Of a stretch of DNA of 64,000 bases, positions 2-37,142 are shown piece by piece (position 1 is the stretch's first letter; the number at the start of each line of letters is the position of its first letter). The translations under genes were made by a program, and so were the position numbers. Below the pieces are notes generated by a model. That model worked only from the letters and a program-made list of their open reading frames with translations. It did not search any database and was not told where the DNA came from. Origin of the DNA: Candidatus Omnitrophota bacterium (GTDB lineage: Bacteria; Omnitrophota; Gorgyraeia; Zapsychrales; JANLHA01). The stretch covers positions 10,331 to 74,330 of the forward strand of contig JBBRHV010000003.1 in assembly GCA_038222225.1 (NCBI GenBank), read 5' to 3'.

Positions 2-346
2 AAAAACTCCCCGCTCATCATCAGCGCCAAAGGAGATATTCAATCCGATCCATACTACCAAAAGGTTGACGGCCTTACGAATGCGCTTATCAATACCCCT
101 GACGTTTCCGGAGTTAAAAGCATCCCCAGCGGCCCTGCAGATCTTAAGGACGCAATGACGAGCTCATTATGGAAACGCATACTGATCTCGCAAGATCAAC
201 GTTCAACAAATATTATTATTTTCCTCGACGATGAAAAATCTTCTGAGAGCATCAAGCCAATTGAAAAGCTTATTAATGACGCCGAAAACAACGACTTCCA
301 ATTAAGTGCCTCCGGCCTCCCCTATATTGTTGAACTGATCAAATGA
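2..346 (+). CDS. Partial ORF (5' end cut by window start), hypothetical; weak resemblance to a periplasmic loop of an RND/MMPL-type exporter. Its stop lies inside the fic 5'-end duplicate.
   Basis: Open frame from position 2 to the TGA at 344-346 (the ORF track gives only the Met-initiated part 155..346). No recognisable catalytic motif. Confidence 0.3.
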   Translation, partial: KNSPLIISAKGDIQSDPYYQKVDGLTNALINTPDVSGVKSIPSGPADLKDAMTSSLWKRILISQDQRSTNIIIFLDDEKSSESIKPIEKLINDAENNDFQLSASGLPYIVELIK

Positions 347-395
347 TCCTTTCTTTCTTTTAACTTATCAAACTCCTTTAAAATAGCCGCTAATT
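325..395 (-). repeat. About 75-bp duplicate of the 5' end of the fic gene (matches 36304..36378; encodes KLAAILKEFDKLKERKDHLIS versus MKLSAILKEFNKLKETKDHLIS).
   Basis: Direct nucleotide similarity seen by eye between 325-395 and 36304-36378; the 91-aa ORF 322..597 ends with the Fic N-terminal peptide. Confidence 0.75.
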
Positions 396-557
396 TCACT
401 ATCAAAACAAGAACTTCCTCAATCTCTGCCCAGAAGTTCAGCAAGACATCATCCTCGGTGATGAAGAAAACTTTCGCGATATCCCCGAATACAAAAGCCG
501 CCCCATCCTTCAGTTGTTCGATCCAAATACTCAGCTCTCCCGATGGAAAAAGATGAC

Positions 558-873
558 GTTCATTTACTAAGTGGCAATTCTGAGAGGACTGATCCATATT
601 GGGCCATAAATGGGACCTTCGAGAGGCATGAGCTTTTTGAATTATCCACAGCTAAGGCATAAACCACAAAACAACGCCCCAATCATGCCCTAACCGTTTG
701 CAACCAACGCGGGCATCCCTCCTTCGGAGGTCGATGCTGCGTAATCATCTAAACCCTGCAAAAAACAGCAGCGTTTAGATACGCAAACCGCATCAAAGAG
801 ATCCCTGACTGCGTTTGGCAATCAGGGATCTTTTTGATTCTAAGAGTCGCTTCCGACACTGTTATACTGGTAG
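558..873 (+). repeat. Repeat R1, a diverged copy of R2/R3: CATTTACTA site, an sRNA-like structured segment (about 650-835) and a terminator hairpin, ending ...CCGACACTGTTATACTGGTAG.
   Basis: Alignable by eye to 33616..33963 and 36711..37142; shared 3' block GATCCCTGACTGCGTTTGGCAATCAGGGATCTTTTTGATTCTAAGAGTCG. Confidence 0.7.
800..835 (+). terminator. Rho-independent terminator hairpin GATCCCTGA-N13-TCAGGGATC followed by TTTTT. Present in all three R copies (also 33890-33922 and 37063-37107).
   Basis: Perfect 9-bp stem plus T-run read directly from the sequence. Confidence 0.6.
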
Positions 874-1350
874 TGGGGGCTAATCGCGGTAGTCATAGCC
901 TCTCTACGTCATTATCCATATCCTATATAATTGAAATTACAAAATCAAAGCAATTTGCGGATCACAGAGAATGCTTTATCAACTGGAGTGATTCGAACCA
1001 ATTAATACCACAATTTGAAGCCAAAAACAACGCGAAAAAATGTCCTATTTGTCCACTTTTTAGACGCCAGAATTTACATAACTATTTGATATATAATCAA
1101 TTGGGGGCGTCCGGAACCTTTAAGGCGGACATAACTTTTTTCGCAATTATAAATATCCAAATCACTTAAAAGGGACATCTTAGCCTTCAAGTTATGAAGT
1201 TGAAGCATATTTTACATAACCCGTTGCTATATAAAGAAAAGACAGATAACCTAACAAGTTGTATGCTGGATTTGTGATCGTTCTAGGGCGACTGAGCACA
1301 TCAAGTTTGAACCTCTTTAATGACCTGAAATAGTTTTTTAAACTAAATTT

Positions 1351-2814
1351 CTACAGTATAGAAGAAAGAAGCCGCATCAAAGAATTCCGCAAATGCACAA
1401 TAGTAGAAGTTTTATTAAAATCTGCCAATGTAACTTCTTTTGAATTCGCCAGATCTTTCAGGATCTGCGCATCTATTTCATTTGTCAATTTTGGATCATA
1501 GAAAACAGCATTAACTTCATAATTCAGACGAAGACTTCTTATATCAAAATTTGCTGTTCCTATAGTACAAATCCGGCTATCACTTGACAGGATTTTCGCA
1601 TGCAAAAATCCTTTTTGATATTGAAAAATCCTTACACCAGACTTAAGAAGCTCTTCGAAATAAGAATATGCTGCCCAGTAAGGAATCAGATTATCCGGCA
1701 CTCCCGTCATCAATACTGTAACCTTAATGCCCCGCATCGCTGCTGTTTTTAAGGCCATAAGTAACGTCGTATCGGGAATAAAATATGGCGAAACAATAGT
1801 GATATTTTTTTGCGCCAGCGTAATAAAAGAGAAATACAGATGCATAATTGCCGGCCACGTTGAATCAAAGCCTGAAGTTGGAAATTGAATTGGAAGATCT
1901 CCCTCTAATCCAAGCTCTTCTGGAATCGGAAAATATTTTTTATCTAAAATATCTTCTTGATTAACAGTGTTGGCCCAATCAATCGAAAAAATTGCATTTA
2001 AAATATTGACGCAGTCTCCTTCAAGACGAATATGCGTATCTCTCCAGGAATCATATTTCTTCCCACCATCTATAACTTCCTGACCGACATTCATGCCGCC
2101 CGTATAGGCAATTTCTCCATCAATGACAGCGATTTTTCGATGATTCCTATAGTTAAAAGTGTGAACCTTAAAAGGCGATAAATAATTAAAGAATGGATAA
2201 ATAAGAACTCCGCCCTTTCTTAATTCGTGAATATACAAACGCCCTAAAGGAAAGAAGCATCCAGAATAATCATATAAAATCCTTACCTCCACACCTTGTT
2301 TCACTTTCTCAAGAAGAAGCGTTTTTAACGTCTGGCCTAAGCTATCATTTGAAGTCCAAATAAAATATTGAAGATGAATAAATTTCTTGGCTTCTTTAAT
2401 GTCCTTAATAAGATATTCAAACTTCTCTTTGCCCGCGTGGAAAACTTTTACCTTATTATTTGTTGTTAGCAGCGATCTTGAGTTGCGGTATAAAAGCGTC
2501 ATCAAGTCGTCTTGATAAACGTTGGACTGGCTCTTCATCTTCTTGATCAGCGCCTCCTGAACCTCATCGATCGGCTTAAATAACGTAATCAGATTCTTAG
2601 CAAGATGCTGTGGAAGCTTCCTTTTCTTATCATAACTTCTTTTCCAATTTCGACCAACAATCAAATAAATCACGAAACCAAACACAGGCAAAAGAATAAA
2701 AATGAATATCCAGGCAAATGTTTCAGAGGGCTGCCTATTGTCCAGCAAAAGAACAATGGCTGTAAAAATAATATAAATATGAAAAGCGATTACAAGAAGA
2801 GGAACAATGCTCAT
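1351..2814 (-). CDS. cls: Cardiolipin synthase (phospholipase D superfamily; two HKD motifs, two N-terminal TM helices).
   Basis: HRKIAVIDGEIAYTGGMN and HAKILSSDSRICTIGTANFD HxK(x4)D motifs; hydrophobic N-terminus. Confidence 0.9.
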   Translation of the reverse strand: MSIVPLLVIAFHIYIIFTAIVLLLDNRQPSETFAWIFIFILLPVFGFVIYLIVGRNWKRSYDKKRKLPQHLAKNLITLFKPIDEVQEALIKKMKSQSNVYQDDLMTLLYRNSRSLLTTNNKVKVFHAGKEKFEYLIKDIKEAKKFIHLQYFIWTSNDSLGQTLKTLLLEKVKQGVEVRILYDYSGCFFPLGRLYIHELRKGGVLIYPFFNYLSPFKVHTFNYRNHRKIAVIDGEIAYTGGMNVGQEVIDGGKKYDSWRDTHIRLEGDCVNILNAIFSIDWANTVNQEDILDKKYFPIPEELGLEGDLPIQFPTSGFDSTWPAIMHLYFSFITLAQKNITIVSPYFIPDTTLLMALKTAAMRGIKVTVLMTGVPDNLIPYWAAYSYFEELLKSGVRIFQYQKGFLHAKILSSDSRICTIGTANFDIRSLRLNYEVNAVFYDPKLTNEIDAQILKDLANSKEVTLADFNKTSTIVHLRNSLMRLLSSIL

Positions 2815-2859
2815 TATGAACTCCTAAAAAGTACTGTTAAAATTTTTATCTATTCTGTC

Positions 2860-3246
2860 TTATTTCGTTACCTTAAAAACCCAGATTTTAAATGTAACGA
2901 AAGTAAAAATAGCAGTCGCCGTCGTTGCGATTATTAAAGCTAAAAAAACCGCCTGCTGACTAGCTTGCAAAACTATCTCATTGACAAAAACATTAACACC
3001 TAATGCGCAAATATTTGCGGCAGTGAATCGCATGACCTCCGTTAAGGATTTTTCATTTTGTTCAAACGTCCAATACTTATTTAACAAATAAGCAATTATA
3101 CCGCCGCAAGTGAACGAAATACATTTAGCCAGGGCAAATGGAAATAAATGGATCAGAACATAATACACAGTGATATCTGTAAAAATAGCAAGCAAGCCTA
3201 CTAGCATAAATCTTAGCAATTCTGATTTATTTTTACTTTTTATCAT
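2860..3246 (-). CDS. GtrA-family membrane protein (polysaccharide/glycolipid synthesis accessory, 4 TM).
   Basis: 128 aa, four hydrophobic helices, RFMLVGLLAIFTDITVYYVL GtrA-like N-terminus. Confidence 0.7.
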   Translation of the reverse strand: MIKSKNKSELLRFMLVGLLAIFTDITVYYVLIHLFPFALAKCISFTCGGIIAYLLNKYWTFEQNEKSLTEVMRFTAANICALGVNVFVNEIVLQASQQAVFLALIIATTATAIFTFVTFKIWVFKVTK

Positions 3247-4576
3247 TGGAAGTATGTTCTCGTATTATTCTTTTAATATTCTTTTGAATTTCCCTTACAA
3301 CCGTTGCTGGAATTCCGGCAATTGCTAAAGCGCCTGCTGAAGATGTATTTGACATTAGATCGGTTTGCATTTTCAGCATTCTCATCGCCTTTCTCCAAGC
3401 ACTATCTTCCACATGACGCTCCTCCTTACGATGCTTTTTTATGGTCGCAGAATAAAGCGCAAGCGCCTTATCAACACAAAGCGGTACGGAATAATTGTCA
3501 GCTGTTTTTTTAGAATTTTTAATCATAACTGCTCGGTCATGTAGAGATAATGCTGCCATCCAATCCAAGCAGGCAGAAAATTCCTTGATATTGTCTTTTT
3601 TGATCATTCTTCCATTTTGTTTGTCTATCAATATATCCCTGACTCCTGGCGCGTCAACCGCCACCACAGGCGTTCCCGCAGCCATCGCCTCTGCTAAAAC
3701 TAATCCCTGCGTTTCACTATGCGATGCAAATACAAAAACATCCAAAGCATCATACGCATTGATAAGCTGTTTTCCTTTTAATGAACCAGTACAGACCAGT
3801 CGATCGGCAAATTTCATTTTTTCAAAACTTTCTTTTATATCCTCCAGCGAAGGACCATTTCCAACAACAACAAAATATGCTTTTTTATTTTTCTTTAAAA
3901 AAGAAATCACTGCTTTGGATAAAAAAACTACATTTTTCTCCGGTGCGATTCGGCCTATGATGCCAACCACAAATGCATCGTTTGGAATACTAAAATATTT
4001 ACGAAATGTTTTACCGTCTCCTTTTTTAAATTCATCAACATAAATACCCGTAGGTACCACATCGATTGGTGCTATTACGCCTCTTTCTTTAAGAAGATCA
4101 GCTACACTTTTACTGGGAGCAATGACCTGATCACACAAATCCGCATAACCTTTTGCAAGCGCGATAACAAATTTTTTCATAGCCCTTGAATCGCCAGGTA
4201 AATAATGCGTGTTTTCTTCATAAATCGTATGATTCGTAAAAACAATTGGTACATTGAACTTTGCTGATGCTCTTAAGGCCGTGTCGCCAACTAAAAAAGG
4301 ATGATGTGTATGAATAATATCCGGTTTAAATTTTTTCAACGTTTGATTCAATTTTTGCGACATTGGCAATTCAACTGAAAAATCTGTATGATTAAACTTT
4401 TGAATCGCAGGAAGGCGAAAAACACCCCTTTCCCTCTTAGAATCTTTCTCGAATTCTGGAGCAATAATTAAAACCTTATGTCCACGTTTGCGATATTCAT
4501 TAGAAAAGACCTCAATCGATATCTCTAAACCCCCAAGAATAGGTTTATACGTATTGGTCATCATGATAATATTCAT
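3233..4576 (-). CDS. Glycosyltransferase family 4 (GT-B, group 1).
   Basis: GIIGRIAPEKN and E-x7-E region ETQGLVLAEAMAAGTPVV typical of GT4. Confidence 0.85.
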   Translation of the reverse strand: MNIIMMTNTYKPILGGLEISIEVFSNEYRKRGHKVLIIAPEFEKDSKRERGVFRLPAIQKFNHTDFSVELPMSQKLNQTLKKFKPDIIHTHHPFLVGDTALRASAKFNVPIVFTNHTIYEENTHYLPGDSRAMKKFVIALAKGYADLCDQVIAPSKSVADLLKERGVIAPIDVVPTGIYVDEFKKGDGKTFRKYFSIPNDAFVVGIIGRIAPEKNVVFLSKAVISFLKKNKKAYFVVVGNGPSLEDIKESFEKMKFADRLVCTGSLKGKQLINAYDALDVFVFASHSETQGLVLAEAMAAGTPVVAVDAPGVRDILIDKQNGRMIKKDNIKEFSACLDWMAALSLHDRAVMIKNSKKTADNYSVPLCVDKALALYSATIKKHRKEERHVEDSAWRKAMRMLKMQTDLMSNTSSAGALAIAGIPATVVREIQKNIKRIIREHTSNDKK

Positions 4577-5227
4577 TTATATTTTCTCTTTTATTAAATT
4601 GTTTACTAAAAAATACACTCCCACAAGTAAAACAAGGGCTACTGCCATTTTCCACCAATGCTGGGGATTGGATAATACGCTTACAAATGAATCACCAAAA
4701 TAAACTAAAGCGATCGAACCCGGCAACATACCAATAATCGTACCCAAGATATACTTCCAATATTTTATTTTTGTTAAACCAATAATAATATTTTGAACAT
4801 CCCACGCAATATTGGGAACTAAGCGAATGATAACAACACTTATCAAACTGTTTTTTTCAATATATTTCTCTACCCTTTCAGCTTTTTTACCAACAATATT
4901 CTCAACCATTTCAGGAGCAATATAGCGGGCAATAAAAAACTGCCACGTTGCACACACAACATAAGCCACCATAATATAAATCAGTCCTTCCCATCCCCAA
5001 ATAACTCCGGCTAGAAGCGTGGCTCCGGTGGCTGGAAATAAAATAAAGGGACGAATTTGAAAAAATAATATATAAACCAGCGGTGCCCAGACGCCATATG
5101 CCGTAACACTTTCCTTTATTCGAACAATATCTATACCCGAATAATCTACGCCCATCTTTTTTAATACAACAAAAAGGGTTATAAATATCGCCGCAAAAAC
5201 ACCTAGTCGAATTAATGTTTTCTTCAT
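4577..5227 (-). CDS. DedA/TVP38/TMEM64 family membrane protein.
   Basis: VTAYGVWAPLVYILFFQIRPFILFPATGATLLAGVIWG signature region; multi-TM. Confidence 0.75.
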   Translation of the reverse strand: MKKTLIRLGVFAAIFITLFVVLKKMGVDYSGIDIVRIKESVTAYGVWAPLVYILFFQIRPFILFPATGATLLAGVIWGWEGLIYIMVAYVVCATWQFFIARYIAPEMVENIVGKKAERVEKYIEKNSLISVVIIRLVPNIAWDVQNIIIGLTKIKYWKYILGTIIGMLPGSIALVYFGDSFVSVLSNPQHWWKMAVALVLLVGVYFLVNNLIKEKI

Positions 5228-7476
5228 GTTAGATTGAATGAGATTTCTTGCTCATCACCGTTTACACTTACTGTGCTCATTCCCGGAATTTTAATTTCCA
5301 TCTGCGGTGGCTCTTTATGCCAATTCGCCTTCCATTGAATAAGAATGTCCTTCTGATGACATTTGATTTCTAATGAAATTTCTCCATAAATTGTCGATGC
5401 CGGACCAAACAATATATTATTTTCCTTCTTAAGCCATTCTAATGGAACGCCGGAACATAAAATTAACTTACCGACTGCTTCTTCCTCTCGGACAAAACAG
5501 TTGCGCATCATTATCATCCATTCCGCTGCGGCCCAGGTATGCTGGCCGTCCCCCATACATCCGCCTTTTGTTTTTGGATGAATCGCCTCCGGCCATTGGC
5601 CCGTGGGAGATGCTAGATCAGCAATTCCCTTCATTAATTGAAAATATCTTTTATCGCCCGCCCTCAAAAATACCTGAGCCATATGCAATGTTAAATAAGG
5701 ATTAATCCCTGAGTGGCTCATATCATGAAAAAAACCATTATTCACCAAACAATGATCAAACAAATACTCTGCTGTATCAGACAATCTGACATTCTCTTGA
5801 ATATTTAACTGCAAAGGATACCCGCAGGCCAACGATCCAACCGCAGATGAATCCAATCGTCGGTAAGGCGATGAAGGAATGGCTTGCCTTTTAATACGGC
5901 TTTCTACATCCTGTAAGCTTTTGTCAACAGCTTGACGCAATAAGTCCGCCTCCCGAGAAAAAACTGCGGATTCTTTTTCTTCACCATACATGAACGCTAA
6001 ATAAGATGCAGCCTCCAATCCTCCAATGCTCCAGAAATCGTCCCAATAATAATAATCATTCGGTCCAAAATGCTCGGCGCTAAAACCTGAAGGCATTAAA
6101 CCCGCATGAATCTTTTTCATATTATCCGCAAGGCGTTTTCTCTTAATCCATCGCGCCCCTTTATGAATCATCTCTTTCCACTCATCCTTCGGCGGCTTAT
6201 TTGTCATTTGAACAAACTTTTGTATAAGCCAAAGAACCTGCCCATTAGAATCCCATTCACCTTCTTGCGACTCAAAGTATCCGCTTATACCTTGCCTCTC
6301 ATGAAATCGATCGATAATACGTTCTGCACGTTCATAAAAACCACAGCATAAAAGAGAATATGTAATAAATACCGCATCACGAAACCAAAATCGTTTATAA
6401 ATGTAGGGCCCGGCATATACATCTTCTGCGGTGTGGGTGATGACTGTCCGCAATGATGAATTGAAAAGATACTGAAAATGCTTATCCGGCACCTCAAGCT
6501 GGCAGGACTTTTCAAGATACTCGATCCAATTTTTTCCGGCATCGGATGATTTTTTTGAAAGTCTCGTTTTTTCTCTTAAAGGAATACTAACTTTTACTTC
6601 CCTTTTTTTGCCTTTTTCTAAATTAAATACAGCTGCAGCACTAGCCATTTCATGAGAACAGCTTATATGCTCTTTTGCGCTGCTTTTCTCATTGAATTGA
6701 TAATAAACATCCCCGTGGTGAAAATCGGATACTACATAATGCTCTGGCTCAATATCAAACAGCACATCGTGCATTTTATTGACTCGCCATCCAGGCCCAC
6801 GCTTTAACAATGAAATATCCTTAACCAAACTAATGCCCTCTGGATTATACGGCCGCAAAGAAACAACTAAACAATTACTATTCTGTCCTTCTGCTGTCAT
6901 CGCAATACAACAAGTTGGATTGCCCTCTTCTTTAATCATTTTGACGCGAGTTGTTAAATGCATATCGCCCGATGAAGACTTGGTCACAACGCTGTTATCT
7001 TCCAATTCCAAATATTGATCAACTTCATTTAACTGTGCAGGAATTAAATCTTTACCATTCTTTGCGACAATCCAAACATCAATTGACCAACTATCCCAAA
7101 AAGGGGTAACTAAGCCACGAGGATCGACTAAGGGAGTTTCTTCCATGTCCGGCAAGCCGACTGCCGTCCAATTTCGGTGCGTTAAATTAATATGCGTTAA
7201 TGAAAAAGAGCGGGGAATAAATGAATCATCCTTTGGATCAAACTGTTTATTCACCCAAAATGGCCAAATCCAGTCTAAATTGTGCTGGATGACCTGTGTA
7301 TTTAACAAGCCCCTGGCATGCAAGACCGCTGTAGCGCGTAATAATTCTGTAGGCGCGAGCACTTCTGAAGGTTGCGCAAATCGACTTATTTTTGTAAAAA
7401 GCCTGACAGGATCTAAAAATCCATGCGCGTGAGCTAAGCGTCTTACAAAATATTTCCAGATAAATCGATTAAACAT
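5224..7476 (-). CDS. Large six-hairpin glycosidase-like protein (GDE_C / amylo-alpha-1,6-glucosidase-like); exact family uncertain.
   Basis: 750 aa; FWFRDAVFI and GYFESQEGEWDSNGQVLWLI resemble GDE_C/GH15-GH63 clan motifs; 4-bp overlap with neighbours suggests an operon. Confidence 0.45.
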   Translation of the reverse strand: MFNRFIWKYFVRRLAHAHGFLDPVRLFTKISRFAQPSEVLAPTELLRATAVLHARGLLNTQVIQHNLDWIWPFWVNKQFDPKDDSFIPRSFSLTHINLTHRNWTAVGLPDMEETPLVDPRGLVTPFWDSWSIDVWIVAKNGKDLIPAQLNEVDQYLELEDNSVVTKSSSGDMHLTTRVKMIKEEGNPTCCIAMTAEGQNSNCLVVSLRPYNPEGISLVKDISLLKRGPGWRVNKMHDVLFDIEPEHYVVSDFHHGDVYYQFNEKSSAKEHISCSHEMASAAAVFNLEKGKKREVKVSIPLREKTRLSKKSSDAGKNWIEYLEKSCQLEVPDKHFQYLFNSSLRTVITHTAEDVYAGPYIYKRFWFRDAVFITYSLLCCGFYERAERIIDRFHERQGISGYFESQEGEWDSNGQVLWLIQKFVQMTNKPPKDEWKEMIHKGARWIKRKRLADNMKKIHAGLMPSGFSAEHFGPNDYYYWDDFWSIGGLEAASYLAFMYGEEKESAVFSREADLLRQAVDKSLQDVESRIKRQAIPSSPYRRLDSSAVGSLACGYPLQLNIQENVRLSDTAEYLFDHCLVNNGFFHDMSHSGINPYLTLHMAQVFLRAGDKRYFQLMKGIADLASPTGQWPEAIHPKTKGGCMGDGQHTWAAAEWMIMMRNCFVREEEAVGKLILCSGVPLEWLKKENNILFGPASTIYGEISLEIKCHQKDILIQWKANWHKEPPQMEIKIPGMSTVSVNGDEQEISFNLT

Positions 7477-7536
7477 AAACTATTTTCTTTCTAATATAAC
7501 AGATATAAACATCTCCTTTAGTCCCATTGCAATTTT

Positions 7537-8325
7537 CTATAATTGAAAATCAGCAATCAAAGGCAGATGATCTGATGCTATTCTTGTTAATTTTGTTGAT
7601 GGAATATCGACTGCATTCAACTCTATGTTCCCTCTGTAAAATATATGGTCTACTTCAAACAATGGATAATAACTAAAAAATGTTTTTTTGTTGTTTTTTA
7701 GGATAAGTTTCGCTTCTTTAAATTCCGTGCGCAGCATTTTGTAAGTTGCTGACCTAGGTCCTGCGTTAAAATCTCCACATAGTATTGTTGGAATATTTTC
7801 ATTCAATCCTTGCGTCCACTTTGCACTTAAAATATCCTCTGCTTGTAACGTTCTTTCGTTAACCCTAAGCCCTAAATGAGTCGTAAAAAAATTAATGACA
7901 TGAGGACCTATTTTAATATTAGCCCATATCATTTCCCGCGATTCATAAAAATATTTTAAAGCTGGAATATGCTTCAGAAAAAATCCCTCCCCACTGAGGC
8001 CAGCCAAACGTTCCGCTTTGACAATATTAAAAGGATGTTGACTCAAAAAAGATATTCCATAATGTTCCCCTTCAAGAGTTATTGCCGGCTGAAAATGACA
8101 ATGCATCCGCAAATACTCGGCAATATATGAAGGCTGATCGATATTCCTTGATGATTTCCTATTAACATCCAATTCCTGCAGAGCAACGATATCGGGGGAA
8201 TACTTCTCTATGACCTGACAAATACGCTCAGGGGAAACTTTACCATCTAGTCCGCGGCAGCTATGGACATTATACGTCATAACCCTTATTTTAGATTTTA
8301 GTTCTTTTTTCTTCATGAACCTCAC
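7537..8325 (-). CDS. Endonuclease/exonuclease/phosphatase (EEP) family protein (YbhP-like).
   Basis: VMTYNVHSCRGLDG...IVALQELD and C-terminal SDHLPLIADF motifs. Confidence 0.85.
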   Translation of the reverse strand: MRFMKKKELKSKIRVMTYNVHSCRGLDGKVSPERICQVIEKYSPDIVALQELDVNRKSSRNIDQPSYIAEYLRMHCHFQPAITLEGEHYGISFLSQHPFNIVKAERLAGLSGEGFFLKHIPALKYFYESREMIWANIKIGPHVINFFTTHLGLRVNERTLQAEDILSAKWTQGLNENIPTILCGDFNAGPRSATYKMLRTEFKEAKLILKNNKKTFFSYYPLFEVDHIFYRGNIELNAVDIPSTKLTRIASDHLPLIADFQL

Positions 8326-8450
8326 AAATGAAGCCTTCTAAACTCCCCGCAGCAAGCGTGCGGGACATCCAGATAGGGCTTCATTCCCCGAGCATATTAA
8401 CCTCGCAGCAAGCTGCGAGGTATTCGAGGGCAATAAAATTCCTACTGACA

Positions 8451-27251: not shown

Positions 27252-27356
27252 ATAATTTTACCCTGATTTGATAATAGGGGTCAGCGCCCTATCTTTAAAA
27301 GGGCCTGTCCCTGCCGAAAGGAAACGGTGTCGAGCTAAAGGTGTCCGTCACCTTTA

Positions 27357-27794
27357 TTAATCTCTATTCTTTTTAAACCACTCCTGATAATATTCCTCCT
27401 GCGCATCCGCTTTGCCGCTTGCGACATAATCCTGATACAGCATTTCTCCTAGATCTTCGCGAATAACATCATCAGGAACTCGACCGTCATCAAAATCCCG
27501 GTACATAATAAATAACGTCCTTAAAAGAACACCAATAGGCTTCATAAACTGTTCGGGAACTTCGATCCGAATCGAATCAACTTCCTCAGCATAAAACTTC
27601 GGATCCTTGCGAATAATTACACCTTTTCCCGCGAACTTCTCAATCACGCTTTCCACGGCCTTGACCTTCCCTTCAGAAGATAAGGCATCCCACATACCGG
27701 CACTGCTTTGAACTGAATTCTGAATAGAAGATGTCGCCGCTAATGTGGGACAGCACCATGTACACAAAAACATTATAATTAATATTTTCTGCAT
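27357..27794 (-). CDS. Secreted hypothetical protein (signal peptide; start taken at MQKIL).
   Basis: Hydrophobic MQKILIIMFLCTWCCPTLAATSS leader. The upstream in-frame extension is the translation of a CT tract and is unlikely to be coding. Confidence 0.5.
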   Translation of the reverse strand: MQKILIIMFLCTWCCPTLAATSSIQNSVQSSAGMWDALSSEGKVKAVESVIEKFAGKGVIIRKDPKFYAEEVDSIRIEVPEQFMKPIGVLLRTLFIMYRDFDDGRVPDDVIREDLGEMLYQDYVASGKADAQEEYYQEWFKKNRD

Positions 27795-28011
27795 TTTTAT
27801 TTTTAAAAACCGCTTCCTGATATCCGCAACACGCCCTGTCCACTCACGGTGGACTGTCCCCTTCTCCGTTCTCTTCTCCCTTCTCCTCTCCTTCTCCTTC
27901 TCTTGAGTTGACCCTTTATAAAGGAAACAGCGCATGTAGTTAAACCCGCAGTTAATGAAAGATGTGTTATTTTACTGAAAAAGTAATGATTTTACAAGAA
28001 ATAACCTGTCG

Positions 28012-29046: not shown

Positions 29047-29057
29047 GGAAATATTAT

Positions 29058-29140
29058 AGAGCGTAGAGGGTAGAGCGTAAAGCGTAGAGGGAAAAAAAGA
29101 CACTAAGACACTAAGACACTCAGGCACTAAGACACTGAAA
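29058..29140. repeat. Two short tandem repeat blocks: (AGCGTAGAGGG)-like x3 and (GACACTAA) x about 5.
   Basis: Read directly from the sequence upstream of the nuclease gene start. Confidence 0.7.
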
Positions 29141-29182
29141 AACGGAAAAACAAAAAACCGCCCTTTGGGGTGGCTTTTTATT

Positions 29183-29195
29183 TGGTAGCCCTGGG
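29183..29195 (-). repeat. Short tRNA-Glu 3'-end-like remnant (TGGTAGCCC..).
   Basis: 9-13 nt identity to the reverse complement of the tRNA-Glu 3' end. Confidence 0.35.
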
Positions 29196-29317: not shown

Positions 29318-29596
29318 CTAAATATTCTTCAGAAACCTTTTAATATCGTCGTGATTTCCCGCAAATATAAATTCCACTAAATCCCCTTGCCACCTAAACA
29401 AGATCCTAGCTTTTATGCCCTTGCGCACTTCCCAAAAGTCACCTCTTAAACGCTTTAAGCCAATTCCTTTATGAATACTTTGATCTTGGGACAGCATATC
29501 AATTAGCTGAATTGCAACTTCTTTTATTGCTGCCTTTTCCTTCTCGGAAAAGGATTTCATTGATCGCTTAAATGCCGGCTTAAATTCAAATTTCAT
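29318..29596 (-). CDS. RelE/ParE-family type II toxin.
   Basis: 92 aa; KGIGLKRLRGDFWEVRKGIKARILFRWQGDLVEFIFAGNHDD pattern; 4-bp overlap with the upstream antitoxin. Confidence 0.7.
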   Translation of the reverse strand: MKFEFKPAFKRSMKSFSEKEKAAIKEVAIQLIDMLSQDQSIHKGIGLKRLRGDFWEVRKGIKARILFRWQGDLVEFIFAGNHDDIKRFLKNI

Positions 29597-29856
29597 AAGT
29601 CTTTAAGATGTTCTTTGGCTACTTCTGCACTGGAAATGCTCTTGCCTTTTTCAGCGGCTAGCTTCTCGATCTTAGCCCATTCTTGTTCCGTGTATGGAGA
29701 TTCAGCCGTGACTTTGCAAGGAACCAAAATCACACCATCTTTTGTAATACCAAAACCCACCGCCGAACCTTCTTTTAAATTCAAAAGCTTTCGAATACGA
29801 TTGGGGATCGTGATCTGTCCTTTGGTGGTCATTTTTGCTACTTCTGTGATTGTCAT
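29593..29856 (-). CDS. AbrB/MazE/SpoVT-type antitoxin.
   Basis: MTTKGQITIPNRIRKLLNLKEGSAV swapped-hairpin motif; RBS AAAGGAG. Confidence 0.7.
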   Translation of the reverse strand: MTITEVAKMTTKGQITIPNRIRKLLNLKEGSAVGFGITKDGVILVPCKVTAESPYTEQEWAKIEKLAAEKGKSISSAEVAKEHLKDL

Positions 29857-30182
29857 TTGAAGGCTCCTTTCATTTTTCCTTACATCCTTACTTAAAGGAT
29901 ACCCTACAAGTAACCAACCGTCAACCCTTTTTAAATCCTGAAAGATCTCACAACACTCTTTCAAACATCCTCTCTAATCACAATCAGAAAGCTGCTTAAC
30001 GCAGAAATTTCATCAATATCAACATGCCACTCATTTGTGTGGATGTCAAGATTCTTCTGTTTCCTTTTATTTTCACCACCAAAACCATCACCAAAATCTC
30101 TAAAAAACATAACGCACCTTGATTAACATCGATATGGCTTGAAAAAATGAAGAAAGGGAAGGCAAAAGCCTTCCCTTTTATC

Positions 30183-30213
30183 TGGTAGCCCCAACTAGAT
30201 TTGAACTAACAAC
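30183..30213 (-). repeat. att-like remnant: copy of the 3' about 30 nt of tRNA-Glu (27/31 identical to the reverse complement of 37323-37353).
   Basis: tggtagccccaactagatttgaactaacaac versus tggtagccccaaccggatttgaaccggtgtt. Confidence 0.65.
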
Positions 30214-30449
30214 ACTTTTAGGTCAAAACTATCGAAAAAACATCAAAATTGTGCAGTTTTTTGCCGACTTTCATCATGCTGATAATTCCATCCCTAAATC
30301 CACTACTAAAAACTTCTATCAACGAAATCCCAAATTCAGAGAACCCTTTATCGACTGGCACGATCCATTCCAGTCGATACCATTAAACATTTCAATCAAA
30401 GACCACAAAATGAAGCAGCTTCCTTGAAGCTCCTTTCCCCATCTCCTTA

Positions 30450-31856
30450 TCAAAACTTCTTTCGCTTCTTAAGATGCTTTACCATCTGAACCATATCTTC
30501 CTTATACATAGACTTCAATTGCTCCCACTTTTCATGAGCAAGATCATAGTCGGGATAAAACATCAAGGCCTTTTCAAAACATTTTTCAGCCTTGCGTTTT
30601 TGAAGCAGAAAAACATAACAAACACCCATATTATGCCAAACCACGTGATTATCATCCCATAGCTTTGAATAATGCTGATAAAATTCCAGGGCCTTTTGAT
30701 ATTGCCCTTCTTTCATGCATCGGGCCGCATCATCAAAAAGTTTTTCAACCTTCTGCTTATCATCTGTGTAAATTCTGTTTATCTGAAAGTCATATCCGAA
30801 TTCTTCCTGGGGATTGCCCATCGCTTTGCGTTCCTCCATAATAACTTCTCTGGGCGTCTTTCCGTTAAGTTCTTCAAGAGGAGCAACAAACCATTCATCG
30901 CTCCACCGCTGAATCTTTTCAACAAACTCTTCCTGTTCTTTGGCAGACATTATCTTCATTGGATACAAAAACGTTTTCTCCATTGCGTCCGTACAAGCGC
31001 TCACCAATGTTTTTTCCAAAGGGCCTTTTTCCATACCCTGATGAAGTTCTCCCACAAACTGATTCCAGACATCGTTAAAAGCCTCGCCGAATTCCTCAAC
31101 ACTGACCCACTCCGGAAGCGTCATGCCGCTCAGCACACTTTGCATTATATCCGCCAGATGCTTTTTATCCTTGATCGCCATTCTCATTTCAAGAAAGATA
31201 TCCTCAGCATCGTCATCCGACAAGCCGCCTTCTTTACAAAGCAGAATGAATTTTTTTTCAACAGATAGCTGTTCCGGAACACGCTCTGGAAACAACGCTT
31301 TATACATCTCAAATGCATCCTGTCGATCATGCGATTCAGACGAGTTTTTTAAAAACAAGCCGATGATATCGTACTCCTGTTTCGGAAAAAACAGGCCATC
31401 CGATGCCATTATAAAATAGTTATCAAACGGCAATAATCTTCCGATAATATAATCGCCTTTCCCGGCAGCTCTGCTTCCTCTGGTGTCAAAAATATGATAT
31501 TCCTCCAATGAAATCACATCTTCGCACACAAACTCTTTACCGATCTTTACTGCCTTAACTTTATAAATCCCGAAGCGGTCCTGCCCAATCCGGGAATATA
31601 TTTCATAAAGCTCCCGGGAGATTTTGCCCCTCTCCTCATCCAGGAAAACATCAAAAAGCCTTTTATGATATTTCTCCAATTGGTGATCAAAAATAAACCA
31701 GTCGAAAAACAGCCGGCCGATATTCTGATCGGTAAATGACAAACGGATAAAATCTTTCTGCCGTTCAAACACCTCTTTTTCTATCGCGGAATGACATCGA
31801 ACAAAATCATTGATCGCATCATACATTTTTTTAATAAGGTCTTTATATTCTTTCAT
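30450..31856 (-). CDS. Hypothetical protein with C-terminal TPR repeats; N-terminal about 330 aa unrecognised.
   Basis: C-terminal KALEFYQHYSKL...GVCYVFLLQKRKAEKCFEKALMFYPDYDLAHEKWEQL TPR-like. Confidence 0.5.
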   Translation of the reverse strand: MKEYKDLIKKMYDAINDFVRCHSAIEKEVFERQKDFIRLSFTDQNIGRLFFDWFIFDHQLEKYHKRLFDVFLDEERGKISRELYEIYSRIGQDRFGIYKVKAVKIGKEFVCEDVISLEEYHIFDTRGSRAAGKGDYIIGRLLPFDNYFIMASDGLFFPKQEYDIIGLFLKNSSESHDRQDAFEMYKALFPERVPEQLSVEKKFILLCKEGGLSDDDAEDIFLEMRMAIKDKKHLADIMQSVLSGMTLPEWVSVEEFGEAFNDVWNQFVGELHQGMEKGPLEKTLVSACTDAMEKTFLYPMKIMSAKEQEEFVEKIQRWSDEWFVAPLEELNGKTPREVIMEERKAMGNPQEEFGYDFQINRIYTDDKQKVEKLFDDAARCMKEGQYQKALEFYQHYSKLWDDNHVVWHNMGVCYVFLLQKRKAEKCFEKALMFYPDYDLAHEKWEQLKSMYKEDMVQMVKHLKKRKKF

Positions 31857-32490: not shown

Positions 32491-32895
32491 TCAAGATAGC
32501 TTGTTCTTCACAAATTCAAAAAACCGCTCACAATCTTTAAACATCTTCTCTGCCTCGTTTTTGCAAACAAGGCGCTCCTCATACTCAGCCATATTTTTCA
32601 TCCGCAAAATCCTCACGATACGGTTGGCGTTTGTCGTGAACTCTTCGGTGTTTTTGATCATTTTAAACAGGACGACCGCCTGATTATGGTCTTCGCCGGC
32701 GCTTCTTTTCCCCAAAAAATAAACGCACATGGCGTCACAGGCGGATATCGTGCAGTGTATCGCATTAATAGCAACAGCATTCCACTGTTGTCCTTGCAAG
32801 GCTTTCTGCGATGCATTAAAACACTCTTGTGCTTTCTGCATAAAATTCGTATACGCTGCGCGCTGAACATCCCGTGTTTTCGGCTTTGCTATCAT
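32491..32895 (-). CDS. HEPN-domain protein (toxin partner of MNT).
   Basis: R-x4-6-H motif (KRSAGEDH); genetic pairing with the MNT gene. Confidence 0.7.
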   Translation of the reverse strand: MIAKPKTRDVQRAAYTNFMQKAQECFNASQKALQGQQWNAVAINAIHCTISACDAMCVYFLGKRSAGEDHNQAVVLFKMIKNTEEFTTNANRIVRILRMKNMAEYEERLVCKNEAEKMFKDCERFFEFVKNKLS

Positions 32896-32907
32896 AACAT
32901 CATCCTC

Positions 32908-33504
32908 CTAGGGGAATAATTGTATTCCTTTTTCGATTTCCTCCAAAAGCTTCAGATCCTTCTTCTGCTGAAACTGTTTTTCCGTCAGAACATACGCAGC
33001 CAATCTGTTGCCAAATTTTTCTAGGCATGTAATAGACAGTCCCTCAAGCGATTCCTCCAGAGACTTTAAACTTTCCTTATTTTGGGTCAAAACAAAAAGA
33101 TCAATATCGCTGTCTGTTTTTTCATCATGACTGGAAACAGATCCGAACAAAACGACTTTAATCAGGCTTTTCTTGGGTAGTCTGCTTAAAATGGTCGTTT
33201 TTAAGGCCACAATCGGCTGTGGCTGCGTGTCAACGATCCCTTTGACAGTATTCAACACATCATAAGCGTAACTCTGAGGATTGACTTTCCAGACATGGGC
33301 CCGCCCTACTCTTTCATAGGAAACAAAATGCCACTGCTCCAGATAGCGCATAACCCGGTTAACCGTCATGTGCGAAATTCCCACCAGAGACGAAATCTCT
33401 CTCTCACTCATGGCGGACTCATGGTTAATCAAAAACCGGACAACCTTGAGTTTCGCCTCAGTATCGATCAATTGAAAAAACGAATCATGAAACTTCATAC
33501 GCAT
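32908..33504 (-). CDS. Minimal nucleotidyltransferase (MNT) with N-terminal winged HTH (antitoxin partner of HEPN).
   Basis: LFGSVSSHDEKTDSDIDLFVL (GS...DxD) motif; wHTH at the N-terminus. Confidence 0.75.
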   Translation of the reverse strand: MRMKFHDSFFQLIDTEAKLKVVRFLINHESAMSEREISSLVGISHMTVNRVMRYLEQWHFVSYERVGRAHVWKVNPQSYAYDVLNTVKGIVDTQPQPIVALKTTILSRLPKKSLIKVVLFGSVSSHDEKTDSDIDLFVLTQNKESLKSLEESLEGLSITCLEKFGNRLAAYVLTEKQFQQKKDLKLLEEIEKGIQLFP

Positions 33505-33506
33505 TC

Positions 33507-33615: not shown

Positions 33616-33963
33616 TTCATTTACTAGAGAGTGGTTGCCCAATTATGGCTAAATCCTAGTAAATGGCTTTTTGGCCATTTTCCCAAAATGCCGATTGCGA
33701 CTATTTTGATTTATTGTCATTTACTAGGGGCCATTTACTAAGTGCCACTTCTGATAGAAATGGCTAGTATCAGACCCAATTTGGCTGTCGCGAGTACTAT
33801 CAATTTTTCCAAATGTAAGCATCCAGCGCCGAAACTACAAAACACCATCCCACTTGCGCCCTAACCCTTTGACACGTCAAGACATGAACGATCCCTGACT
33901 GCGTTTGGCAATCAGGGATCTTTGTGATTCTGAGAGTCGTTTCCGACACTGTTATACTGGTAG
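33616..33963 (+). repeat. Repeat R2 (CATTTACTAG sites x4 in direct/inverted orientation, terminator hairpin, ends ...TTATACTGGTAG); lacks the central sRNA-like segment.
   Basis: Alignable to R3 36711..37142 and R1 558..873. Confidence 0.75.
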
Positions 33964-33999: not shown

Positions 34000-35263
34000 T
34001 GATCTTCCCCACTTTAGTGGACAGTTTGTTTAGTTAGGACGGCTCGATTTTCAAACTCAAAAGGACTTAAATAATTGAGCGTTGAATGACTCCGTCTACG
34101 ATTATAATACATCTCTACATATTCAAAGATTTTTCTTCTTGCTTCTTCCCTAGTTCGAAATCGGTACTTGTGAACAAGCTCGACTTTTAACGTGTGGAAG
34201 AAGCTCTCAGCGACGGCATTATCCCAGCAGTCACCTTTTCGGCTCATACTGCCGATAAGCTTATGTTCAGCCAATATCGCCTTGAAATCATTCCCTGCGT
34301 ACTGACTGCCGCGATCTGAGTGACAGATCAATCCTTTATCCGGATTCCGCCTTAGGATCGCCTGTTGCATAGCCCTGGTGGTTAGTGTCGCGGCAATGGT
34401 TTTATCCATGGCCAAACCAACAATCCCCCGCGAAAAAAGATCCAGCACCATCGCCACATATAACCACCCTTGAGAAGTCCAAATATACGTTATATCGAAT
34501 ACCCAGACGGCATTGGGCTTCTCGACCACAAAGTTCCGATTCAAAACATTCGGCCATACCGGATAATCATGCTTCGAGTTCGTCGTTAACCGAAACTTAC
34601 GCTTCTGGACAGCGACGATTCTGGCTTCTCGCATGACCTTCGCCACACGGTTCTCCGAACAACGGATATGTTTGACGTTGTTCAACTGGTCCCAGATTCG
34701 TGGACTGCCGTAATTCTCTTTGTTCTCCACAAACACACATTTTATCTCAATGAGCAATGCTTCATTCTTGATGCGGCCCTGGCTCTTGGGCCGATTTTTG
34801 TATGCGTAATACCCGCTCCTCGACACTTCCAAGGCCCGGCACATCTTCCCGAGCGGAAAGACCAAACGGTTATCGTCTATGAATCCGAACCGTTCTCGGT
34901 CGATTTTGAAAATATGCCGACTGCTTTTTTTAGGATGTCACGCTCCATTTCAACATCACGTAACTGACGCCGTAACGCCGCCAACTCTGTCAAATGACCC
35001 TTGCCGGGAAAAGCCTTCTCTCCCTCATCGCCAAACTGCTTCTTCCAGAGATACAGCCGCCCCGGGTCGATTCCAAGGCTCCTGGCCACCTCTGCGGCCT
35101 TGTGCCCGCCCTCTGTGACCATCTTGACCGCTGACATCTTGAACTCCCGGTCAAACCGCTTCTTCTTCCCGTTTTCTCCTGCCATTGGACACCTCCCGTT
35201 TTTGAGCCGGCTATCATATTAAAACCAACTCTTCGTTGTGTCCACTTTTTCGGGGGAAGATCA
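34000..35263 (-). mobile_element. IS3-family insertion sequence (orfA 34877..35185, orfB 34014..about 34930, A7 -1 frameshift site near 34920; terminal IRs TGATCTTCCCC...).
   Basis: OrfA HTH protein; OrfB rve/DDE integrase core; slippery CTAAAAAAAGC; about 25-bp imperfect terminal inverted repeats at 34000 and 35263. Confidence 0.85.
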
Positions 35264-35361
35264 CTTTATCAACTTGAATAATGCATTCAAGTCGTTACAA
35301 CCGGATTTTTATCCATTCAAATCTTGAAATTTCGCACTCTTTCTTTGGATTTTCATACCAT

Positions 35362-36378
35362 TTATTGCTTTTCCACATATTCAGCCATATCCTGCACCCG
35401 AACATGCCAAGTCTTCCCTCTTTTGACACCCTTTAATTTTCCCCGATTAATTAAATTGCGAAGATAATCTGAAGAGTAATTATAGATTCTTGCCAAATCA
35501 CTCAGCGGCAACTCAGCCTCTTTATTAGTGTGACGAATATCTACTTCCTTAAGGCGTCCTACGGCATCATCCAACCGTCCTATAACAATTTCTTTTATCT
35601 TATCAAAATCCTCCAGACGAATGCATTCATCTACATCATTAACATCAAACTTTTTCCCTTGCTCTATTTTGCGATGAATTAATTCAAAAACATCATCTGC
35701 CTTCTCTAGGGCATCATAATAATACTCACGATCCTTTTTAGAAATACCTTTGATCGCTATATTCATCAACCCACATCCAATGAGAATATACGATAATAAA
35801 ATCCTCCCAGTGCGCCCATTCCCATCAGAAAAAGGATGGATCGATTCAAACCAAACATGTGCTATCGCCGTTAGTTCAATATGATTATATTTCTCTTTTT
35901 TTAGATGATAATTAATCCATTTAACCAATAATTCCGTCGCTGGACGCACATAAAATTCACTAATAGGCGTAAACGTAGATTCTGTAACCTCTGCCCTGCC
36001 CTTACGAAATCCCCCTAAATCTCCGATATAAAATCCCATTTCCTTTTCATAACGCATCAAAAGAGTGTGGATCTGTTTAACATCAGACATACGCACTGAA
36101 AATTCTTCTTCCTTGTGTTGATTTGCCGCATATTCATACATCGCAGATGCTGCTTCAAAATAACCTAGAATAGATGCCGCCTTATGCTTATCCGTTCTTT
36201 TATTATTTTCAAGAATATCAATCAAATCTTTACGATTAGCAAATACTCCTTCAATCGCAATGGAGTTGCGAATCTCATCCTTAAACAAAGAATACCATTC
36301 GGCATTAGAAACGCTGATCAAATGATCCTTTGTTTCTTTTAACTTGTTGAACTCTTTTAAAATAGCTGATAATTTCAT
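35362..36378 (-). CDS. fic: Fic-family protein (intact; HPFSDGNGRTGR motif) with a C-terminal HTH-like region.
   Basis: Fic motif, N-terminal SIAIEGV inhibitory-helix-like motif, 338 aa. Confidence 0.85.
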   Translation of the reverse strand: MKLSAILKEFNKLKETKDHLISVSNAEWYSLFKDEIRNSIAIEGVFANRKDLIDILENNKRTDKHKAASILGYFEAASAMYEYAANQHKEEEFSVRMSDVKQIHTLLMRYEKEMGFYIGDLGGFRKGRAEVTESTFTPISEFYVRPATELLVKWINYHLKKEKYNHIELTAIAHVWFESIHPFSDGNGRTGRILLSYILIGCGLMNIAIKGISKKDREYYYDALEKADDVFELIHRKIEQGKKFDVNDVDECIRLEDFDKIKEIVIGRLDDAVGRLKEVDIRHTNKEAELPLSDLARIYNYSSDYLRNLINRGKLKGVKRGKTWHVRVQDMAEYVEKQ

Positions 36379-36445
36379 GACATATTCCTAAGTAGTGTTA
36401 AATATCAAAATCTATCGAACCACATGTGCTTATTAAAACCAACAA

Positions 36446-36602
36446 GACTTGCGAACCTTTTCTTATGGTTCGATAATAATATATCATATTTATGTGTGAA
36501 ATAAAGCTATTTCTAGTATTTTACCGAACCTTCCGAACCACATCCAATTCTTATTTTTACCCTCAAACTATCGAACCTTTGCGCATGGTTCGGTAAAAGC
36601 CT
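36446..36602. promoter_or_regulatory. Two palindromic CGAACC-N9-10-GGTTCG sites (36446-36470, 36577-36602) plus CGAACC half-sites upstream of fic; putative operators.
   Basis: gcgaaccttttcttatggttcga and atcgaacctttgcgcatggttcgg read directly. Confidence 0.45.
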
Positions 36603-36710
36603 CAAATGTCCGTCTTTTTCTCAGACCCACTAGCTTTCCAGATATGGATATGTAACATAAAAATTGTACAAAACAGCACTTTCATTTTACAAAACACAAA
36701 AACCCCACTA

Positions 36711-37142
36711 TTCATTTACTAGAGAATTTTCGCCATATTCAGGCACAATCCTAGTAAATGAAATTCTGGCTATTCCACCCCAATAGGCATTTTCAAACAT
36801 TTTGATAAATAAGCATTTACTAGGAGCCATTTACTAAAGGCCGATTTTGATAGAAATGGCTAGTATCAGACCCAATTTGGCTGCCGCGAGTACTATCAAT
36901 TTTTCCAAACGTGATCATCCTGCGCCGAAACTACAAAACATCATCCCCATTACGCCCTAACCATTTGCAACGTCAACACAGGCATTACCCCCTTCGGGGG
37001 TTGATGCTGCGCAATCATCTAAACTCTGCAAAAAAACACCAGAGTTTAGATACGCAAACCGCATCAAAAATCCCTGACCGCGTTTGGCAATCAGGGATCT
37101 TTTTGATTCTAAGAGTCGTTTCCGACACTATTATACTGGTAG
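36711..37142 (+). repeat. Repeat R3 (full-length: CATTTACTAG site cluster + sRNA-like structured segment about 36930-37095 + terminator), directly abutting a tRNA-Glu 3'-end copy at 37137.
   Basis: See R1/R2; ends with ...ttatactggtagccccaa. Confidence 0.75.

Follow-up and report, generated by a model that had tools for sequence, protein, structure and literature searches.

A probable composite array of large serine recombinase modules downstream of tRNA-Glu(CTC) in an Omnitrophota bacterium

The DNA considered here is a stretch of 64,000 nucleotides from a Candidatus Omnitrophota bacterium (contig JBBRHV010000003.1), called the window in the following. Its left 37 kb lies downstream of a tRNA-Glu(CTC) gene (37323..37399, minus strand; ARAGORN; Rfam 56.8 bits) and contains three copies of a non-coding repeat, R, partial copies of the tRNA 3' end, small modules of toxin-antitoxin-type genes and the remnant of a large serine recombinase (LSR). 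An earlier note on this DNA had thought of one integrase-less island of about 36 kb or, as a second option, of a decayed or tandem array. The second option, with the array anchored at tRNA-Glu, is supported. We read the left 37 kb, with a probability of roughly 80%, as a composite, partly decayed array of LSR-driven integrative-element modules that accumulated downstream of tRNA-Glu(CTC). Directly observed are the linkage of R to the LSR and to tRNA-derived cores, the border repeats, a module-wise variation among relatives, a near-empty site and the recombinase remnant. Related contigs are referred to by L numbers; L015 is from Ca. Aceula meridiana.

The R copies, the tRNA fragments and the left boundary

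Repeat finding and alignment place R1 at 561..873, R2 at 33616..33963 and R3 at 36711..37142 with a tail to 37148. All three are in direct orientation on the plus strand, which confirms what had been reported, with the start of R1 now at 561. Their pairwise identity is 77-91% (R2 versus R3, 81% over 270 nt; R1 versus R3, 87% over 217 nt), and the final 81 nt agree at 89-91% across the three. Their completeness differs. R1 is a partial arm without the first ~110 nt of R; it retains motif 4, the GCCCTAACC box (687-700), the terminator hairpin (801-829), the near-core palindrome (844-859) and a terminal TGGTAG (868-873). R1 and R3 share a ~79-nt insert of two hairpins, which is missing in R2. R2 is apart from this a full arm and also ends with TGGTAG. 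R3 is a full arm with a terminator hairpin at 37070-37098 and ends in a 12-nt copy of the tRNA-Glu 3' end, TGGTAGCCCCAA (37137-37148). The claim that R3 abuts the 3' end of the tRNA gene had to be given up, as R3 ends at 37148, 174 nt short of the gene. R2 does lie beside an IS3 element, at a distance of 36 nt. The exact 9-mer CATTTACTA is found nine times in the 64 kb, 9/9 within R: four times in R2 (33618, 33657 on the minus strand, 33718 and 33732), four times in R3 (in each case three direct and one inverted) and once in R1.

The partial copies of the tRNA-Glu 3' end at 37137-37148, 30183-30207 and 29183-29191 have one common orientation. The first is the end of R3. The second, 25 nt with three mismatches, follows a terminator hairpin (30156..30207, plus strand), and we take this stretch to be the distal (attL-type) junction of the MNT-HEPN module described below. 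The third, a 9-nt fragment TGGTAGCCC, again follows a hairpin of terminator type (29158..29191, plus strand) and is read as an old att junction; the fragments at 29183 and 30183 both look like older junctions. Allowing up to three mismatches, the 25-nt tRNA-end pattern occurs at 2 sites in the window, versus 0 expected from shuffles. As in a tandem array, an intact tRNA stands at one end and same-sense partial 3' copies stand at the junctions. The GC content is 0.38-0.45 to the left of the tRNA versus 0.51 to its right.

The left boundary (325-398) consists of two illegitimate junctions. An open reading frame (ORF) fragment (2..334, plus strand) runs off the window start and is truncated at its 3' side where a fic piece begins; its Pfam matches are weak (MMPL, E = 0.18). 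The fic piece (335..398, minus strand) comprises the first ~21 codons of a fic paralogue. It is 89% identical over 64 nt to the intact fic gene at 36314-36377; with the 5' end of fic in L015 the identity is 85%. The recurrence of the fic 5' end that the earlier note had seen is real; its coordinates are not, since the alignable parts are 335-398 and 36314-36377 instead of 325-395 and 36304-36378. The first junction lies at 334/335. At the second, 398/400, the start of fic meets codon ~461 of a recombinase, of which the last 56 codons and the stop are left (400..570, plus strand), the stop lying within the CATTTACTAA motif of R1. By tblastn this remnant matches residues 461-516 of the LSRs of L011 and L012 with 61-63% identity (E = 8e-19). 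That the window has no recombinase gene is correct for intact genes: one with Resolvase, Recombinase and zinc-ribbon domains was not found in it. The statement overlooked, however, the 56-codon remnant. To the right of R1, a flank (874..1105, plus strand; 'X') has a homologue beside an R copy in L015, as seen by alignment and BLAST, so this junction is old and shared and no recent insertion end; tRNA remnants or similarity to a P' arm were sought to the right of R1 and were not found.

The R arm, its recombinase and related loci

Judged by the alignment of 11 copies from five genomes, R is a conserved non-coding right arm of 350-430 bp that reaches from the stop codon of a DUF2924-linked LSR to a 24-25-nt copy of the tRNA-Glu(CTC) 3' end. 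Conserved blocks alternate with free spacers. An inverted pair of (A/T)TT(T/A)ACTAG motifs is followed by a direct pair, a GCCCTAACC-TTTG box, a hairpin, a short palindrome and the tRNA-derived core. The mean pairwise identity is 0.82 for motif 1 (ATTTACTAGAGA), 0.77 for the inverted motif 2, 0.65-0.66 for the direct motifs 3 and 4 and the subsequent TGAGAGAA, 0.85 for the near-invariant box, 0.76 for the hairpin, 0.71 for the near-core stretch and 0.78 for the core; the spacers reach 0.43-0.46 and the free centre of ~100 nt 0.44. The near-core palindrome differs in sequence between clades and keeps its symmetry. The hairpin shows compensatory changes and has T-runs on both strands. In L004 and L011 it is located ~35 nt past the CCA end of the tRNA. 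Probably it replaces the tRNA terminator displaced by the insertion and acts as a two-way terminator, which would also stop transcription of the recombinase from entering the tRNA.

The R-linked enzyme is a bona fide large serine recombinase by its sequence and model matches. Genes combining Resolvase, Recombinase and zinc-ribbon domains were recognised in L010, L011, L012, L013, L015 and L019 by Pfam, PDB and fold comparison. The L010 enzyme has the Pfam domains Resolvase, Recombinase and Zn_ribbon_recom. The PDB sequence matches of the LSR are the integrases of TP901-1, SPbeta, A118 and phiC31, and its AlphaFold2 (AF2) model (pLDDT 83) matches the folds of the SPbeta and Bxb1 integrases with E = 1e-16. 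Its C-terminus harbours an extra all-helical domain of ~100 residues (~414-512, pLDDT ~90 in AF2), which has no Pfam match even at E <= 5. This domain and the DUF2924 partner are the candidate binders of the ATTTACTAG sites in R. A ParB-like helix-turn-helix (HTH) had been suspected in the C-terminus from the sequence; Pfam was silent, and AF2 yielded a confident helical domain only.

The stop codon of the ORF that precedes R sits in motif 1 in L010, L012, L013, L015 and L019. In L011 the LSR stop falls in a degenerate copy, CATTAAC, which is separated from the full motif 1 by a 74-aa ORF. In L010 the LSR gene is split, and its stop lies within the first CATTTACTAG motif of the adjoining R. 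The L010 gene contains one in-frame TGA (1543-1545), and the 97% identical copy of L012 (1213-2763) is intact; the TGA is either a pseudogene mutation or a sequencing error.

The LSR of L019 is 60% identical to the L010 enzyme. It comes with the same R architecture and a tRNA-His-like core (12800-13170, 14690-15250), and its array terminates at tRNA-His(GTG). R goes with the recombinase clade and not with the target; the clade seems to have been retargeted between tRNAs with its arm kept. For the FIST protein encoded next to the tRNA, for Fic and for the recombinase relatives, the closest matches are in Omnitrophota.

The order of an intact element is cargo, (HTH), DUF2924, LSR, R, a 24-25-nt tRNA 3' copy and the tRNA body. 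In L010, L011, L013 and L015 the LSR stop and R are followed by a core of 24-25 nt whose sequence is that of the tRNA 3' end. L011 shows, to the left of its tRNA, cargo, HTH, DUF2924, LSR (10001-11551), the 74-aa ORF, R and tRNA-Glu (12193-12269), and to the right FIST, a histidine kinase, a response regulator with GGDEF domain, RPE and tRNA-Leu, i.e., the same flank in the same orientation as in the window. L013/L014 present DUF2924-LSR-R-core, then an AAA_14 module-R-core with intact 25-nt cores on both sides in L013, then SWIM/Fic-R fused to tRNA-Glu, and FIST. L010 has LSR-R-core25-P'-HEPN/MNT-R, and L015 has LSR-R-core25-P'-fic-R-X. Recombinases beside att sites and shared cores at both ends are thus seen. 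The L004 array has paired 21-nt cores (5156-5176, 8666-8686), and the cores of the window are at 30183-30207, 37137-37148 and 37323.

In the window, R2 and R3 head two small modules without LSR, an MNT-HEPN and a Fic module. Small integrase-less units, which the earlier note had considered, do exist. The MNT-HEPN module starts with a P' arm (30208..30388, plus strand) that is conserved beside the core in L010 (83% to 2880-3053) and L004 (73% to 8499-8665). Its cargo, on the minus strand and identified by Pfam, is HEPN (32491-32895) and the MNT nucleotidyltransferase (32908-33504), together 32491..33504; the amino-acid identities to L004/L010 are 82-94% for HEPN and 66-86% for MNT. A gene of a TPR protein (30450..31856, minus strand; Pfam) is an insert relative to the L004/L010 module, where no TPR gene lies between P' arm and HEPN. 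The cargo of the Fic module is the intact fic gene (35362..36378, minus strand; Fic plus C-terminal HTH_17 in Pfam), whose product has an amino-acid identity of 85% to that of L004 and of 90% or more to that of Ca. Aceula meridiana. The MNT-HEPN module has the 25-nt core at its left end and only TGGTAG at its right end; in the Fic module the two ends keep 6 nt and 12 nt, respectively.

L004/L005 hold the same modules in the same order beside FIST: tRNA-Glu fused to R-fic, an 11-nt core fused to R-MNT/HEPN, a ~200-nt P' arm, a 21-nt tRNA fragment and a terminator of native type. They have neither the IS3 nor the TPR gene. The unit P' arm-HEPN-MNT-R is found in L010, L004 and the window with different neighbours on both sides, and the Fic module, which L010 lacks, occurs in the window, L004 and L015. 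R-core junctions are therefore places where modules vary independently of one another.

L016, a contig of 368 kb from a related species, has a near-empty site, with 300 bp between a ShlB/TPS operon and tRNA-Glu. It is collinear with window positions 37856-49448 at 76-81% nucleotide identity, and to the left of tRNA-Glu the two have nothing in common. Synteny breaks at the tRNA; L004, L010, L011, L013 and L020 hold different module sets at the same site.

Interpretation and alternatives

How could such an array arise? The LSR would recombine an attP of the order R-core-P' with the tRNA 3' end; integration would rebuild the tRNA and leave a tRNA 3' fragment at the far end of the element. Repeated integration would stack modules, and the array would grow. 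Junctions with 6-12 nt of core would stem from secondary-site recombination or deletion. On this reading, the window contains a remnant of an LSR element (the LSR 3' end at 400-570 plus R1), joined by illegitimate junctions to the fic 5' fragment and the truncated ORF. The MNT-HEPN module extends from the P' arm (30208-30388) to R2, the TPR gene having entered later, and the Fic module extends from fic to R3, its 3' flank having taken up the IS3.

Several points weigh against the array. The block 874-29183 has no recognisable element ends, and at the protein level none of the fetched relatives has a counterpart of it; a search of the block for R, core, P' arm or a recombinase trace found none. 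Its low GC suggests a foreign origin, and either an inserted island or old chromosome would be in line with the sequence. A trans-acting LSR has to be assumed for the source genome, as the window lacks an intact one. L020 contains a solo, well-preserved R (5265-5684) fused to tRNA-Glu next to FIST. On its far side Fur, NifB-like, MinD-like and oxidoreductase genes follow, with no LSR within 5 kb; R can, accordingly, persist without any element function. No excision product and no circular junction were seen. Finally, R1 and R2 retain just 6-7 nt of the tRNA core (TGGTAG|TG), and R3 continues into DNA that lies 174 nt downstream of the tRNA instead of into the tRNA body. A simple attP x attB reaction can therefore not account for several of the junctions, and one has to assume that deletions or secondary-site events came later. 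Three secondary junctions break the core at positions 10-12, where the dyad symmetry of attP is centred; R1 and R2 break it at 6-7, so that no single crossover point fits all junctions.

The LSR-less modules of toxin-antitoxin type (Fic, MNT-HEPN, RelE/MazE-like) may be relics whose deletion is counter-selected, or they may be cassettes mobilised in trans by a resident LSR. For a function as modules speak at least five of them with unrelated cargo, a complete motif set and a sharp boundary at motif 1; for relics speak the partial copies R1 and R_a of L004, the solo R of L020 and several degraded cores. A tentative extension, which we consider rather doubtful, goes further: R would work as an accessory arm with several sites, belonging to a distinct LSR clade that has the DUF2924 partner and the extra helical C-terminal domain, and the LSR-less units (P' arm, one operon, R) would be cassettes shuffled in trans. 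A putative protein of the element would bind the four (A/T)TT(T/A)ACTAG sites and the GCCCTAACC box, and the bound sites plus the tRNA-derived core would suffice in cis for insertion and excision. Characterised LSRs usually need a simple attP of ~50 bp and no accessory sites. If the cassette reading were true, one would deal, in contrast to such a simple attP, with a tRNA-anchored serine-recombinase counterpart of the integron. In a small literature sample, a long multi-site arm between recombinase and core that is kept by very small single-operon modules was not described for LSR elements.

An improbable alternative is that R is the gene of a structured non-coding RNA, e.g., an antitoxin-like or regulatory one divergent from the toxin-type cargo. 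Of course, the hairpins show compensatory changes (CCTCC/GGAGG in R1 versus CCCCC/GGGGG in R3), the terminator hairpin on the plus strand has a T-run, and fic and MNT-HEPN have R upstream of them in divergent orientation. Rfam, however, detected two tRNAs only in the window and the R regions, both at the gathering threshold and at E <= 10. RNAalifold with the 11 copies supported the terminator hairpin alone (13 pairs, others trivial), and the covariation term was unfavourable (+0.42 kcal/mol). We therefore read R as DNA sites plus a terminator rather than as an RNA gene. Moreover, the two optional hairpins are absent from 8/11 copies, the centre of R is the poorly conserved part mentioned above, and R also follows LSR genes and stands beside other cargo, i.e., it is not tied to one toxin family.

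Slightly less credible still is the single island, in which 36 kb bracketed by a fic piece plus R would loop out when R1 recombines with R3, either site-specifically or by homology. R1 and R3 indeed are direct repeats, are accompanied by the 64 nt of fic, and enclose an interval of low GC. Yet R is one-sided in every relative, tRNA-proximal and downstream of the LSR, and not a terminal repeat. Since every R forms the tRNA-proximal arm of its module, the three copies in the window are all right ends and none of them is a left one, which removes the basis for an island bounded by R1 and R3. The interval contains a third R and two tRNA fragments, its left junction cuts an ORF and a recombinase gene, and in L004 the two modules, fic and MNT-HEPN, stand at tRNA-Glu with the remaining 29 kb missing. 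Nor do the supposed matching repeats of 'fic piece plus R' exist: the DNA between fic piece and R is unrelated at the two places, being the recombinase 3' end at 400-570 and the fic promoter region at 36379-36710, and the unit is therefore not one repeat. On the array reading, the interval from R1 to R3 would not be an excisable unit, and the outer repeats enclose, in place of a single 36-kb island, a mixture of old insertions and what is left of others.

We give hardly any credence to a tyrosine-integrase island at the tRNA, in which CATTTACTA would be arm-type sites and the integrase would lie beyond the window. A 20-25-nt identity with the tRNA 3' end plus repeated arm sites is the textbook pattern of such islands. 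Five independent contigs, however, have a serine recombinase directly upstream of R, four of the five (L010, L012, L013/L014, L015) with the serine-recombinase stop within the first R motif, and the window itself keeps a serine-recombinase 3' end; a tyrosine integrase was called neither in the ORF survey of the window nor beside R at any locus. The CATTTACTA sites are part of the recombination-proximal arm of the element, as proposed; the resemblance to integrase arm-type sites is just an analogy, the recombinase being an LSR and not a tyrosine integrase.

That R is a generic intergenic repeat (REP/MITE-like) of the lineage can practically be discarded: it is non-coding, hairpin-rich and multi-copy, and short-read assemblies break at it (as do the indexed Logan contigs of the source sample), but no copy was found in the other 26 kb of the window, a 24-base near-core pattern matched one contig (L010) among 185,579 species genomes, both times in R-core context, and none in JGI metagenomes and viral contigs, a box-to-hairpin pattern matched one JGI contig (L020), again with R fused to tRNA-Glu, and all copies found point the same way into a tRNA 3' end or fragment. 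A terminator-loop pattern had no match in the first scan of the genome collection; the pattern was too specific and mismatches even L004, so that this null result says little.

Among known systems, the region belongs with the tandem islands that LSRs drive at tRNA-like genes; its arm is the distinctive trait. Its closest counterparts are the genomic islands (GIs) of Dehalococcoides at ssrA, tandem islands at the ssrA 3' end of which 15 lack an integration module (McMurdie et al. 2011; PMC3146451). Both systems have tandem islands downstream of a tRNA-like gene with ~20-nt direct repeats of its 3' end, a serine recombinase (in Dehalococcoides CcrB-type and ~540 aa) at the att-proximal edge whose 3' end reaches the att site, many islands without integration module, which in Dehalococcoides are discussed as cis-mobilizable, a low GC and a synteny break at the site (PMC3146451). 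They differ in the target, which here is tRNA-Glu(CTC), and tRNA-His in a sister clade, instead of ssrA; in the partner, DUF2924 instead of a small second serine recombinase (DsiA), ParB or Mom; in the host phylum, Omnitrophota; and in the arm of 350-430 bp with four repeated sites between recombinase stop and core, where the ssrA-GI recombinase overlaps attL.

The staphylococcal cassette chromosome (SCC/SCCmec) at rlmH (orfX) and the Enterococcus cassette chromosome likewise integrate by LSR at the 3' end of a conserved gene, stack in tandem and have recombinase-less pseudo-elements with the same short repeats (PMC6222049; PMC3146451). SCC differs by its protein-coding target, its CcrA/CcrB pairs and its resistance cargo, the cargo here being toxin-antitoxin and defence genes; its junction repeats measure ~15-18 nt and come with short inverted repeats and without a long conserved arm. 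In the tycheposon islands of Prochlorococcus, successive integrations push older elements along and leave partial tRNAs and integrase fragments (Hackl et al.; 10.1101/2020.12.28.424599). They share with our locus the tRNA-anchored hot spots and neighbours separated just by a partial tRNA. In contrast to it, 910/937 of them have tyrosine recombinases, and no R-like arm is described (10.1101/2020.12.28.424599). Streptococcal cis-mobilizable elements (CIMEs), to which the small modules here may correspond, are att-site units without recombinase, formed or carried by site-specific accretion beside a competent element; they belong, however, to families of integrative and conjugative elements with tyrosine integrases and conjugative transfer, and no transfer genes are seen here (PMC5704250). 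The small units, promoter-poor or of a single operon and often toxin-antitoxin, with one conserved recombination element each, recall chromosomal integron arrays. Yet IntI tyrosine recombinase, attI and attC hairpin are absent here, so this is not an integron; R measures ~400 bp and is linked with a tRNA-derived core and with a serine recombinase, and its sole family-wide hairpin is a terminator.

The puzzle of an integrase-less 36-kb island thus turns into a concrete element family of an uncultivated phylum, with recombinase, target core and arms defined by sequence. LSRs with known attP/attB pairs are sought for genome engineering, and the clade offers natural tRNA-Glu and tRNA-His targets together with an unusual, long conserved arm of testable role. 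The locus also illustrates how toxin-antitoxin and defence genes gather at tRNA hot spots of Omnitrophota. The right landmarks to delimit islands here are R copies and tRNA fragments, not long direct repeats.

Cargo, tRNA surroundings and minor features

The fic promoter/operator region (36379..36710, minus strand), with a promoter-like site at 36500-36473, is conserved in L004 and L015. Upstream of fic are two CGAACC-N9-GGTTCG palindromes (36452-36472, 36572-36592), and a TGTTACAAATGTAACATAAATGTTACAT palindrome is situated upstream of MNT (33520-33548). These palindromes, conserved in L004, L010 and L015, look like cargo-specific operators distinct from the R motifs. The IS3-family insertion sequence (34000..35265, minus strand; ORFs 34877-35185 and 34014-34865) was assigned by reading its ORF translations and its terminal inverted repeats, TGATCTTCCCC; it interrupts the fic 3' flank, as compared with L015. 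Between the two tRNA fragments a pair of a RelE/YafQ-like toxin and a MazE/AbrB-type antitoxin is encoded (29318..29964, minus strand; Pfam), the toxin match being weak and under the Pfam cut-off.

Downstream of tRNA-Glu the DNA of 37149..37322 (minus strand) includes a tRNA-proximal part (37235-37322, terminator 37289-37315) of native type, kept in L002 and L004. A copy of the tRNA-Glu 5' half (37657..37706, minus strand) is contiguous with the conserved upstream flank that L016 also has; the original gene therefore seems to have received the intact tRNA-Glu together with 37400-37656 later on, as a duplication or insert. The motif CCACTTCCTCGGACATT occurs three times (29212-29228, 37213-37229, 37490-37506), extends to ~36 nt in two copies and in each case adjoins a tRNA-Glu gene or fragment. 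L002 (431-597) and L016 (9455-9612) have a structured insert of ~147 bp that separates the intact tRNA from a partial copy of the tRNA-Glu 3' end, and a 17-nt complement of the tRNA 3' end lengthens the terminator stem. L002 has a partial R-like piece (172-229) that is missing in its close relative L016, whose FIST falls in the same 90%-identity cluster.

The ~28 kb of accessory genes with low GC (1351..29127, minus strand) encode a cardiolipin synthase, a glycosyltransferase, GGDEF/PAS proteins, PEP-CTERM proteins, two-component systems, a radical SAM protein and DUF1016-SNase. The ORFs at 21318-21788 and 20952-21302 are fragment-like, e.g., the N-terminal part of a sugar-transporter-like membrane protein, which suggests gene decay within the block. 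A 109-nt inverted repeat (25758-25866 / 26245-26353, 96% complementary) surrounds a 378-nt segment with a DUF1456 ORF (25884-26180); the whole, 25758-26353, could be an invertible segment, or the repeats could be the ends of a small element.

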